Source of the DNA: Escherichia virus TH54
Direction: 5' to 3' (one strand)
Length of the DNA stretch: 64,000 nucleotides
Sequence record: MT446420.1
In this document: piece after piece, positions 3,555 through 19,457 of the stretch
How the letters are laid out: every line of letters begins with the position of its first letter
Numbering within the stretch: position 1 is the stretch's first letter
The notes under the pieces: generated by a model
The model's input: the letters and a program-made list of their open reading frames with translations, nothing else
What the model was told of the DNA's origin: nothing
Databases searched by the model: none
Translations under genes and position numbers: made by a program

Positions 3555-4178
3555 TTACATAAACTTAAAGAATTCTTTAAGCCCCTTAATTACATGGACA
3601 GAATGCGCTCCACACTCGCAAGAGATAGGAATAGCCATTTGGACTTGTGGCTTGAGAAGTTCTTCCGTTAGTGCATTTATATCATCGAGGGTAATTGCAT
3701 TGTACAGGTCCTCGATTTCGGCTTCATTTAAGTCATCAACAACGATGCGCTCACCGCCTTCCGTGATAATATATTCAATACAACAAGCAATCATTTTTCC
3801 TTTATCACCGTCTTCAAACAGCCCAGGATAACGGAATTTAATTTTAAATGCCCCGAAATCACGAATAACTTCAGACTCATCCACGATGCTTGCACGACTT
3901 ATAGTCACAGGAATATCTTGTTCCTTTCCGCACTCACATACCCATGTATGCTCGACGTTAACAGCTCCGAGACTATTTGCCCAGAGATTAATAAGAAGCA
4001 GCTCGGCTTCCTGTTTGTTTAACCCTTTAGCATCAGTGCATTTATTAAGCAGTTCAATTATTGCAGGTTCCATACGCTTTTCTAATTTTGCCTGAAGCAA
4101 ATCTTTGTATTCGCGCAAGGTAAAAGCCCTACAATTTATAGTTTTATTTTTAATTTGGACAATAAATTCATAAGTCAT
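3555..4178 (-). CDS. 26: baseplate hub subunit gp26
   Basis: Track ORF 3555-4211 begins at a TTG; ATG at 4178 with AAGGAG SD gives 207 aa, matching T4 gp26 (208 aa). Confidence 0.85.
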   Translation of the reverse strand: MTYEFIVQIKNKTINCRAFTLREYKDLLQAKLEKRMEPAIIELLNKCTDAKGLNKQEAELLLINLWANSLGAVNVEHTWVCECGKEQDIPVTISRASIVDESEVIRDFGAFKIKFRYPGLFEDGDKGKMIACCIEYIITEGGERIVVDDLNEAEIEDLYNAITLDDINALTEELLKPQVQMAIPISCECGAHSVHVIKGLKEFFKFM

Positions 4179-17869: not shown

Positions 17870-17895
17870 AAAAAAAGACTCCCGAAGGAGTCATT
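17870..17895 (-). terminator. hairpin terminator (GACTCC-CGAA-GGAGTC) followed by U-run
   Basis: Perfect stem with CGAA loop and a 9-nt T-run on the minus strand directly after an ORF stop. Confidence 0.65.
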
Positions 17896-18247
17896 TGATA
17901 ATTGTTTTATAGGTTACTTCAGCTGTATAGAAGTTTTTGGCTTTCATTACAATAGCTTCACCCTTTGGATTTGCCTCAATCCATTCTCTGGCGCGTTTAT
18001 GTGCTTCCAGTTCAGTAAGCAAACCAGAACGTTGACAGCCCCGGTCTTGTGTACCAGCTTCACTTAAGAAAGCGACAAGATAAATTGCATCGTCATACGG
18101 TTTCGCAGGTGGTGTGTATATCGGAGGGCTTGGTGGAACATATGCAGCAGGATGATGTTCCGGAATTGCATTGTATGGCTCCAGACCAGGCGCTGCATAC
18201 GATGCTCCACGCGGTGTAGTAAACGTGTGATTGTATCTATCGTTCAT
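17891..18247 (-). CDS. hypothetical protein with Pro-rich N-terminal region
   Basis: 118 aa; AGGAAAAT SD; terminator hairpin at its 3' end. Confidence 0.55.
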   Translation of the reverse strand: MNDRYNHTFTTPRGASYAAPGLEPYNAIPEHHPAAYVPPSPPIYTPPAKPYDDAIYLVAFLSEAGTQDRGCQRSGLLTELEAHKRAREWIEANPKGEAIVMKAKNFYTAEVTYKTIIK

Positions 18248-18289: not shown

Positions 18290-18451
18290 TTATGCTTTCG
18301 GCTTACCAAAGCAAGCTGCATCGGCACGCAATACCGCACGAGCACGAGCCTGAAGTTTATCAGTCACCTGATTGATTCGCTTGTTGGACGCACGCTTGTA
18401 ACCAGCGCGTTTGGAGGAGCCATCAACAACTTTAACTTCTTTCTTAGCCAT
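18290..18451 (-). CDS. small highly basic protein (53 aa)
   Basis: Hand-translated MAKKEVKVVDGSSKRAGYKRASNKRINQVTDKLQARARAVLRADAACFGKPKA; ATG start, terminator immediately downstream; below track cutoff. Confidence 0.4.
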   Translation of the reverse strand: MAKKEVKVVDGSSKRAGYKRASNKRINQVTDKLQARARAVLRADAACFGKPKA

Positions 18452-18697
18452 ATTAAATTCTCTTTAAAATAGAATGCAGGACTTATTGACATTGCCTGCG
18501 CAAGCCCTCGAAGGGAACATAGGTTTTTGGATATTTAACGACCAGGATAACCATAAACCCGTCATCATTCACATTCAAGAGGTACACCATAAAACCGCCG
18601 GGGTCTTAAAACTATAATGATTCGCAAATCATTAATCAGACAGTTCGACGGCTCCTCGATTTTCTAGCCGCACTTAAGGTAGCGAATCACCTAAAAC

Positions 18698-18952
18698 TTA
18701 CTTCAGAGTAACGACAAAATGTCGAACAGCTTTACGCGCAGCAGATGCCAGCGGCTTAGCATATTTCAATTCATCTTTAGCTTCGAGTACAGCGCGAAGG
18801 TCGGTTTGTACCGGGTTAAGATGTTTGAAATACTGCAGAATTTCCAGTGCTTCGGCTTCAACATCAATAGATGCGCCGTAGTTTTCGTGACCGTTATTCC
18901 ATGCAGTGCGTTGCAGTTCAAGAGCGTGTTGTAATTGTTTGTTTAAAGACAT
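18698..18952 (-). CDS. rIII: rIII lysis-inhibition accessory protein (probable)
   Basis: Track ORF 18698-19087; internal ATG 18952 (MSLNKQLQHALELQ...) gives 84 aa, matching T4 rIII size (82 aa) and position next to gene 31. Confidence 0.6.
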   Translation of the reverse strand: MSLNKQLQHALELQRTAWNNGHENYGASIDVEAEALEILQYFKHLNPVQTDLRAVLEAKDELKYAKPLASAARKAVRHFVVTLK

Positions 18953-19109: not shown

Positions 19110-19457
19110 TTACTTATAAAGACAAGGAACAGCTTTATAATGACAGGTCACAAATTTCTGCTTAACTTCTTTAGCCTGCTTAAGTCCCAGAGCAACCAGA
19201 GGATGTGGAACGTTTGCAATCTTGCCAACCGGAAGAGGAGTCAAATCACCTACTTCACAGAAACCTTCAGGAACATCTGGGCCAATCGAAAATACTTCAC
19301 ACATCTCTGGGATTTCACCCTGATGGAGTTTTCCGATAACAATACCTGATGCCGTAGTTTCTTCATCACCAGCTTGCTTTGGCTCAGAAACCAAAATAAT
19401 ATATTCACCTACTGCTTTAATTGGTAATTCCATATTTAATCCATGTTGTTTGGTCAT
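19110..19457 (-). CDS. 31: co-chaperonin gp31 (GroES-like)
   Basis: [19 protein letters not shown]...[15 protein letters not shown] matches T4 gp31 closely from memory. Confidence 0.9.

Follow-up and report, generated by a model that had tools for sequence, protein, structure and literature searches.

A ToxI-like repeat and further structured RNA modules in the rIII–30.9 gap of the T4-like phage TH54

The gap between rIII and gene 30.9 of Escherichia virus TH54, a T4-like myovirus, occupies positions 18452-18697 of the 64,000-nucleotide (nt) stretch of sequence record MT446420.1 that we analyzed (the whole stretch is called the window below). We consider it reasonably probable that this gap is a transcribed cassette of independent RNA modules on the rIII–30.9 transcript, with a single-copy mimic of the antitoxin RNA ToxI, directed against the ToxIN system, as its first module, and with modules A and B as phage non-coding RNAs. 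In both T4 and the window the order is ToxI-like unit, module A, module B and a group of hairpins. The ToxI-like repeat at the 5' end of the gap is the most interpretable element and had been overlooked in the preliminary description of this DNA.

The repeat is a single pseudo-ToxI unit on the minus strand at 18658-18692 (AGGUGAUUCGCUACCUUAAGUGCGGCUAGAAAAUC), reading AGGTGATTCGCTACC-TTAAGTGCGGCTAGAAAATC from 18692 to 18658, and was recognized by matches to plasmid ToxI arrays, by identity to the core of the pseudo-ToxI of phage PhiTE and by stem covariation. When the gap was compared by BLAST with 5426 complete E. coli genomes, matches to bacterial DNA were confined to gap positions 1-44. They occurred in 54 genomes, and 137 of the 141 places lay on plasmids, nearly all of 4.5-6.5 kb, with 2-4 copies per replicon; in PLSDB, 71 plasmids were matched, plasmids of Pectobacterium atrosepticum included. 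The E. coli plasmid pTA114-2 carries a 5.6-copy array of a 36-nt unit (AGGTGATTTGCTACCTTTAAGTGCAGCTAGAAATTT), which ends about 50 nt upstream of a gene annotated as 'type III toxin-antitoxin system ToxN/AbiQ family toxin'. The window unit is identical to the pTA114-2 unit at about 31 of 36 positions, and the BLAST matches were reciprocal in both directions. Rfam (4227 models, E <= 10) gave chance matches only in the window and seven relatives; for the ToxI-like unit this silence is explained by the fact that no Rfam model detects even a genuine ToxI array.

The reverse search with two plasmid units returned 249 phage records, nearly all with one unit each. They comprised T4-like phages, where the unit has precisely this position, T5-like phages, Kuravirus, Moazamivirus, rV5-like Pectobacterium phages and PhiTE, and the units lay nearly always in transcribed non-coding spacers. 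In a T5-like phage the unit stands alone between tRNA-Ile and tRNA-Met, and in a Moazamivirus it stands alone after ssb. The PhiTE record annotates the matched feature as 'pseudo-ToxI, weak antitoxin to ToxN protein'; among the records listed it is the only one with a pseudo-ToxI annotation, the matched stretch elsewhere bearing either no feature or a predicted hypothetical protein. In Kuravirus XT32, a near-perfect ToxI unit (AGGTGATTTGCTACCTTAAGTGCAGCTAGAAAG) was seen between terL and the portal gene (locus L083, about 3815-3850), 1.8 kb from the module A of that phage; it is preceded by AGAAATTC, a proper ToxN-type 5' site.

ToxI folds into a pseudoknot with stems S1 and S2 and the conserved residues G5, A6, U12, A19, A20, G21 and U22 (PMC8860590). 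Mapping of S1 and S2 on 15 phage and plasmid variants showed that 93.8% of the cells were paired, compared to 25-49% with slid partners. Compensatory changes were found at four of the eight pairs (U9-A25 to C9-G25, G10-C24 to A10-U24 and G2-C15 to A2-U15 are examples), and the covariation score was reached by 0 of 500 shuffles. The copies with compensated stems span T4-like, T5-like, phAPEC8-like, Kuravirus, Moazamivirus and rV5-like phages. All the conserved residues listed above are present in the window copy, as read from the sequence on the predicted fold. A reading of the unit as a sigma-70 or MotA-type promoter was rejected, since the hexamers and their spacing fit poorly and the stems covary.

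A phage pseudo-ToxI is already a known kind of element, described as a non-coding RNA of the Pectobacterium phage PhiTE (NC_020201, 106714-106772) by Blower et al. in 2012 (PMC3475682). The window copy, like that of PhiTE, is a phage-encoded ToxI-like sequence in a non-coding spacer, which in the window would be transcribed and in PhiTE lies near tRNA genes. Its 25-nt pseudoknot core equals the first PhiTE repeat at 25 of 25 positions, including the U9C/A25G pair and the 'TT' loop variant, and the same extra A is found in the 3' tail. Unlike PhiTE, which has 1.5 repeats, the window has one repeat, in a T4-like phage and between rIII and 30.9; this repeat is fused to further structured modules. 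In a single-repeat assay, the PhiTE pseudo-ToxI was inactivated solely by the group-4 changes C27G and U28A, the other changes being neutral alone or together (PMC3475682). The window copy retains the triplet C27-U28-A29, whereas PhiTE has the inactivating G-A-C, and, according to our reading of the figure legend in that paper, it has only PhiTE's neutral changes (the U9C/A25G pair, the loss of U17 and one extra A). Since the triplet is kept and only neutral changes are carried, the window copy is predicted to be an active ToxN antagonist.

With genuine ToxI the window unit further shares the H-type pseudoknot stems S1 and S2, the tertiary residues and an A-rich single-stranded 3' tail. It differs in being phage-encoded, in having neither a tandem array nor an adjacent toxN, and in a 5' flank that apparently lacks a ToxN processing site. 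One ToxI-like copy is present in the 64-kb window, and no tandem unit is found at 18452-18697, so that there is no array of the ToxI type (3 to 5.6 units). The neighbors of the unit are rIII and gp30.9, with no toxN/abiQ gene downstream, which indicates a mimic and not part of a toxin–antitoxin locus. In PhiTE, the pseudo-ToxI (locus L102, 1150-1300) seems to lie inside a split tRNA-like sequence, with a D-arm-like TAGCTCAGC just upstream and GGTTCGAACCC...CCACCA just downstream. Together with the T5-like unit placed exactly between tRNA-Ile and tRNA-Met, this suggests that ToxI-like units are linked to tRNA processing contexts.

Module A, at 18573-18660 on the minus strand, is an 88-nt structured RNA. 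Its structure was proposed by hand, with P1, P3 and P4 forming an interrupted outer stem around hairpin P2 (18615-18634), and RNAalifold independently gives the same fold. In 21 distinct sequences from five lineages 97.5% of the cells were paired, compared to 31-65% in slid controls; 12 of the 26 pairs had changed on both sides, and none of 500 shuffles reached the covariation score. The stretches CUGAU and UAUAGUUUUAA are conserved and unpaired. The G-U pairs at columns 9-84 and 15-78 are invariant, and because they fit only the gene strand, the RNA strand must be the gene strand. Readings of the conserved motifs as a K-turn, C/D box, hammerhead or anticodon loop were dropped by eye, as the pairings they need are incompatible with the covarying helices.

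The preliminary description had drawn attention to a GATTCGC...GCGAATC inverted repeat in the gap. The repeat does exist, as an 8-bp match with arms TGATTCGC and GCGAATCA at 18682-18689 and 18618-18625, 56 nt apart, but it is not an informative structure. We estimate that about 0.5 inverted repeats of 8 bp are expected by chance in about 250 nt. The 5' arm is not kept in relatives, reading GATTCAC in T4 and being absent from the rV5-like, Kuravirus and phAPEC8-like copies, and the 3' arm overlaps and conflicts with the covariation-supported helix P2 (18615-18622/18627-18634).

Module A is found in several phage families. In the rV5-like Vequintavirinae it adjoins tRNA-Met, with module B in LTH01 and A5-4 and without it in A73. 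In phAPEC8-like phages tRNA-Gln and tRNA-Pro enclose it, and a ToxI-like unit directly precedes it; one phAPEC8-like strain carries a version reduced to P1-P3, in which one more pair is compensatory. In Kuravirus it is located between an upstream gene and terL and is followed by a terminator, and in Klebsiella phage P545 (Marfavirus; locus L098, 1477-1638) only the inner P4-P2 domain is found, between gp31 and rIII. P545 additionally has module B, a ToxI-like unit and the segment called Element 2 below, all after rIII. The covariance model R1 scored 106.6 bits at module A, its sole copy in the window.

Phage tRNA clusters can include small stable RNAs, such as T4 species 1 and 2 (RNA C and RNA D). 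Module A and the ToxI-like unit resemble them in lying on the tRNA strand among tRNA genes in rV5-like and phAPEC8-like phages, where they would be freed by tRNA processing; unlike RNA C and RNA D, the modules sit in an mRNA spacer in T4-like phages. We considered homology of module A to RNA C or RNA D and rejected it, since the R1 model has no match in the tRNA/RNA C/RNA D region of T4.

Some records that carry module A deserve comment. In rV5-like phages (locus L080, about 2165-2255; L097, about 1605-1690) an unannotated tRNA-like sequence, GCGCGGGTG...GGTTCGAGTCC...CCCGCGC, lies directly past modules A and B. A 133-nt query from PsgM04F (L084), recorded as a Pseudomonas phage, is 100% identical to the phAPEC8-like coliphage phiWec188 (LC739537), and the 'Pseudomonas' host label of PsgM04F looks doubtful. 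In LR597654.1 (phAPEC8_ev052, L096) the tRNA genes and their PsgM04F counterparts are annotated on opposite strands, so that one of the two records probably contains a strand error. The 3267-bp contig JAEZZQ010000010.1 (L085), labeled as a metagenome-assembled genome (MAG) of a 'Bacillota bacterium', matches the terL start region of Kuravirus XT32 around module A with few differences and is probably a phage sequence binned into a bacterial MAG.

Module B extends over 18521-18569 on the minus strand and contains a hairpin, GACG(G)G/CCUG(G)UC with the loop GGUUAUC, at 18540-18563. Its stem was paired in 94.4% of the cells, with double changes at three of six pairs and a covariation score that no shuffle out of 500 reached. 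The bulges shift from strand to strand among relatives and the helix stays intact. In Klebsiella-, Edwardsiella- and CC31-type phages module B stands right after rIII with its stem pairs flipped, and it also occurs in rV5-like phages. The loop GGUUAUC could possibly pair with a downstream AAACC in an H-type pseudoknot; both segments are invariant, so there is no covariation signal to read.

Between module B and 30.9 lie three smaller hairpins, again on the minus strand. The one at 18505-18515, CCCU-UCG-AGGG, was read from the sequence; the pattern CCC(C/U)U(C/U)GAGGG is kept in all T4-like relatives, the Klebsiella type included, and with so little variation it is a hairpin candidate only. At 18476-18499, GCAGG and CCUGC flank a variable loop of 14 nt, and in Klebsiella/Edwardsiella-type phages the stem becomes GGGAG/CUCCC, GGGAGC/GCUCCC or GGGAAC/GUUCCC, with loops from about 8 to about 50 nt (hairpin and counterparts were read by eye). 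A possible hairpin at 18457-18475, AUUCU-(9 nt)-AGAAU, likewise read from the sequence, overlaps the weak Shine-Dalgarno region (AAGAG) of 30.9 and has the T4 analogue AUUUUC/GAGAAU. Of the whole gap, only these last 20 nt or so (18457-18475) might tentatively be put forward as a 30.9-specific leader element.

Conservation in the gap exceeds that in the adjoining genes. Compared with T4, the window is 82.0% identical in rIII, 75.7% in gp31 and 66.7% in 30.9, and 90.7% over the whole gap; within the gap, identity is 70.7% for the 5' 40 nt, 96.6% for module A, 100% for module B and 88.1% for the 3' hairpins. Gap sequence was found in about 800 phage records. The single-sequence folding energy of the gap is unremarkable relative to shuffles (z = 0.21), and the structure signal derives from comparative data rather than from thermodynamic stability. 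In one alignment (A4), one row ('L008x') has one C missing, which affects one cell. The preliminary description had suggested a structured leader, a small RNA or a regulatory region for a nucleic-acid-binding protein. That the gap holds a structured, strongly conserved RNA on the gene strand was borne out, with covarying helices in module A, module B and the ToxI-like unit. A leader or regulatory region for the basic protein, by contrast, misfits most of the gap, because module A is present in rV5-like, phAPEC8-like and Kuravirus phages that have no detectable 30.9 homologue, and because the module order is shuffled in Klebsiella-type T4-like phages.

Among aligned relatives the modules are individually present, absent or rearranged. 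VR25 and ATK47 have an additional 50-nt hairpin between modules A and B, and U115, VR26 and JS10 have a 135-143-nt segment, Element 2, at the same junction. JS98-type phages have no ToxI-like unit, and in the Klebsiella-, Edwardsiella- and CC31-type T4-like phages the order is module B, ToxI-like unit, Element 2 and then the hairpins. The junction of A and B appears to be a hotspot of module insertion. The 50-nt hairpin (…CACGCGTCAGAAAAAGGTTATCTGTCTAAGTCGTG…) recurs in many relatives at the point corresponding to about 18570 in the window (loci L002, about 1690-1745; L004, L005, L012), which is also the insertion point of Element 2 (L003, about 1190-1330; L006, about 1230-1385; L014, L015, L063, L068, L071). 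Element 2 is a structured RNA of fixed length, about 135-143 nt, which is 80-98% conserved across genera and also stands beside the ToxI-like unit in T4-like phages of Klebsiella, Enterobacter, Serratia, Aeromonas and Erwinia. RNAalifold gives it 44 pairs, 6 of them with compensatory changes, and it has no match in Rfam or among plasmids. By BLAST, no bacterial counterpart of modules A and B or of Element 2 was detected among 72,556 plasmids or in the 5426 E. coli genomes. In GTDB genomes, a pattern scan for such counterparts found one MAG contig, which is actually Kuravirus-like, and pattern scans of IMG/VR returned largely chance matches or close relatives.

The window locus is 99.4% identical to that of Escherichia virus TH57, about 87% to that of vB_EcoM_VR25 (Gaprivervirus) and about 80% to that of T4, which has an equal gene arrangement with a gap of 244 nt. 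Every gene at the locus is on the minus strand. Downstream of gp31 (19110-19457) lies the coding sequence of rIII, a lysis-inhibition accessory protein (18698-18952; phrog_1457, E = 1.2e-42; named rIII in relatives). Its stop codon at 18698-18700 delimits the gap of 246 nt recognized before, and the RNA cassette begins 5 nt past it. The absence of a tRNA cloverleaf, noted earlier by inspection, agrees with ARAGORN, which finds no tRNA or transfer-messenger RNA in the window. The 53-amino-acid (aa) basic open reading frame (ORF) at 18290-18451 is indeed followed by an intrinsic terminator at 18285-18266, where the terminator scan gave an 8-bp stem with five G-C pairs and then a T-run; relatives have a terminator annotated at the matching place. 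No promoter-like or terminator-like site was detected within the gap by the promoter and terminator scan, and in the T4 record X54536 a late promoter is annotated upstream of rIII and none in the gap. From these features together we infer that rIII, the gap and 30.9 form one transcription unit. Driukas and Nivinskas reportedly dealt with rIII/30.9 expression in 2003. Past the 30.9 terminator, at 17891-18247 (minus strand), the window encodes a 118-aa protein (phrog_17531) that is not a homologue of T4 30.8 (phrog_1507), so that the 30.8 position is occupied by another gene in this phage.

The product of the 53-aa ORF, which begins MAKKEVKVVDGSSKRAGYKRASNKR, proved on homology search to be a conserved small basic protein, T4 gp30.9. 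It matches phrog_1427 over residues 1-53 (E = 2.9e-26), lies downstream of rIII as in relatives and is annotated as gp30.9 in VR25 and ATK47. Homologues were found only in T4-like phages of enterobacteria, where the protein is strongly conserved with the invariant motif G.S.RAGYKR.SN.R...RARAV. It has no Pfam family, and a comparison with PDB sequences gave nothing significant (top match a SlmA helix, E = 0.24). In the AlphaFold2 model (mean predicted local distance difference test score, pLDDT, of 70) a disordered basic N-terminus precedes one helix, residues 24-48. Nucleic-acid binding is plausible from composition alone, and a role together with the gap RNAs is conjecture. Our literature search, which did not extend to subscription journals, found nothing on the function of gp30.9 or on an RNA from the rIII–30.9 gap. 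In the metagenome contig QZLZ01027750.1 (L094) a deletion joins the frame of module B to the body of 30.9 in a 58-aa chimeric ORF; this could be a naturally occurring deletion or an artefact of assembly.

Several observations weigh against a ToxI mimic that acts for the phage. E-values of the unit against bacterial DNA are modest (2e-3 to 5e-3), as the element is short. Its 3' side reads GAAAAU and its 5' side UAAGUUUU, which contains no AAAU; without an AA^AU site of the ToxN type in the 5' flank, ToxN would probably be unable to trim the window unit to 36 nt on both sides. T2, T4 and T6 are strongly restricted by plasmid-borne toxIN, and the known counter-measure of T4 is the protein TifA (PMC9391042). 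Wild-type PhiTE, with its 1.5 pseudo-ToxI repeats, is still aborted by ToxIN (PMC3475682). JS98-type and apparently RB69-type phages lack the unit and yet keep modules A and B; the JS98 type thus shows that the remainder of the cassette does not depend on the unit. Neither a counterpart in bacteria nor a target or partner was identified for modules A and B. We also considered whether the unit explains the partial resistance of RB69 to toxIN and rejected this, since RB69 appears to be without it. As an alternative of rather low probability, the ToxI-like unit may be a scar without function, left by past recombination with toxIN plasmids, or a hitch-hiking sequence, with selection acting on A and B only. 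In line with this, no other part of the gap differs as much between the window and T4 (70.7% identity), the unit has degenerated in T4, T2 and T6, all of them toxIN-restricted, and it is deleted in JS98-type phages, and a single copy gave wild-type PhiTE no protection (PMC3475682). The T4 copy has a broken S1 pair (4-13), is one A shorter in a loop and has a changed 3' tail. This degradation is consistent with published findings that T2, T4 and T6 are susceptible to plasmid toxIN and that T4 relies on TifA (PMC9391042). However, both pseudoknot stems are kept by compensatory substitutions across the six phage groups named above, the unit is carried by 249 phage records nearly always in transcribed spacers, the window copy has every residue reported as critical, C27 and U28 included, and fast evolution is expected of an arms-race element. 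The sensitivity of T4 and PhiTE to ToxIN keeps a scar in consideration; covariation and wide distribution make it unlikely.

A somewhat less likely alternative is that the whole gap is a cis-acting 5' leader, which gp30.9 would bind to autoregulate its own translation in the manner of ribosomal-protein leaders. The gap does lie directly upstream of 30.9 in about 1000 T4-like records, with no promoter or terminator separating the two, gp30.9 is a small basic protein whose N-terminus is disordered and rich in Lys and Arg, and the possible hairpin at 18457-18475 overlaps the Shine-Dalgarno region. A leader is disfavored by the presence of modules where 30.9 is missing: in phage families for which tblastn detects no 30.9 homologue, module A and the ToxI-like unit are found in tRNA clusters or before terL. 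Moreover, the modules vary independently (A-B, B-ToxI-Element 2 or A alone) whereas 30.9 is constant, the most conserved parts, A and B, are 70-210 nt away from the 30.9 start codon, and the ToxI-like unit has a specific explanation of its own. It is highly improbable that the gap hides small genes, either the only sizeable ORF in it, of 34 aa at 18464-18568 (MMTGLWLSW...), or an N-terminally extended 30.9 of the kind annotated in old T4 records (ORF D of 97 aa, gene 31-2 of 72 aa). The 34-aa frame runs open in both T4 and the window, and in VR25-type phages it is restored by paired indels; the ORF calls of the old T4 records are inconsistent, and some modern annotations also place ORFs here. 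The same paired indels, however, also preserve the helix of module B, with the bulge moved to the other strand. In ATK47-, JS98-, IME341- and Klebsiella-type relatives stops cut the frame to 5-19 codons and the nucleotides are still conserved, on which ground its coding potential was rejected; it has no preceding Shine-Dalgarno sequence, and its start is a mechanical call (first ATG, GTG or TTG after an in-frame stop) at this ATG, with no upstream start in the window. We give equally little credence to a function at the DNA level, be it as an origin of replication, a hotspot of recombination or a binding site for proteins. A 10-bp 'ori type 2 repeat' is annotated near the 30.9 start in one relative, and indels cluster between modules A and B; against this, the invariant G-U pairs of module A would be C-A mismatches on the opposite strand, the helices covary in the fashion of RNA, and ToxN showed no significant binding to a DNA oligonucleotide of ToxI sequence (PMC8860590).

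On the favored interpretation of the gap as a cassette of RNA modules headed by a ToxI mimic, it probably aids the phage in evading host defence. After infection, decay of the labile host ToxI would free the ToxN endoribonuclease; the phage ToxI-like pseudoknot with its A-rich 3' tail could then bind ToxN as the genuine antitoxin does, and ToxN so bound would cleave less phage RNA. The single repeat may also serve as a template for repeat expansion or for recombination with plasmid toxI, the escape route of PhiTE. A ToxI mimic would thus counter the same host system as the ToxN inhibitor TifA (T4 gp61.4; PMC9391042, PMC10853763), which is a protein encoded at a distant locus beside dmd. TifA is small and basic like gp30.9, and no similarity between the two was detectable (hhalign probability 0.05%). 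Modules A and B are exchanged horizontally by coliphage lineages that are not related to one another, in most cases as parts of tRNA operons, and for these reasons most likely act in trans after processing and not as a leader of 30.9. A broader and more speculative idea, to which we attach a rather low probability, is that the rIII–30.9 spacer is an RNA anti-defence island. Here pseudo-ToxI, A, B and Element 2 would each be a decoy or antitoxin mimic against a different abortive-infection nuclease or RNA-controlled defence. The modules would be traded among T4-like, rV5-like, phAPEC8-like, Kuravirus and T5-like phages and usually matured from tRNA operons, with gp30.9 as a basic RNA-binding partner that stabilizes or delivers them.

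ToxIN is among the well-studied systems of abortive infection, and in E. coli it is examined chiefly with T4-like phages. In the literature covered by our search, subscription journals again excepted, there was no report of a pseudo-ToxI in T4-like or other coliphages. Two T4–toxIN papers from the Laub lab (PMC9391042, PMC10853763) make no mention of a toxI-like element, rIII or 30.9, and among the matches listed 'pseudo' and 'mimic' occur only where the PhiTE paper is cited. The present analysis clarifies a region of T4 whose annotated ORFs have varied from record to record since 1990. Modules A and B and Element 2 exceed the neighboring genes in conservation, are common to unrelated phage families and are absent from Rfam and from the bacterial collections searched. 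That the window variant is free of the inactivating mutations of PhiTE makes its predicted activity against ToxN testable. If the proposed reading is true, mimicry of a type III antitoxin RNA would be widespread, extending beyond PhiTE to hundreds of T4-like, T5-like and other coliphage genomes, and would provide these phages with a ready substrate for escape through repeat expansion.

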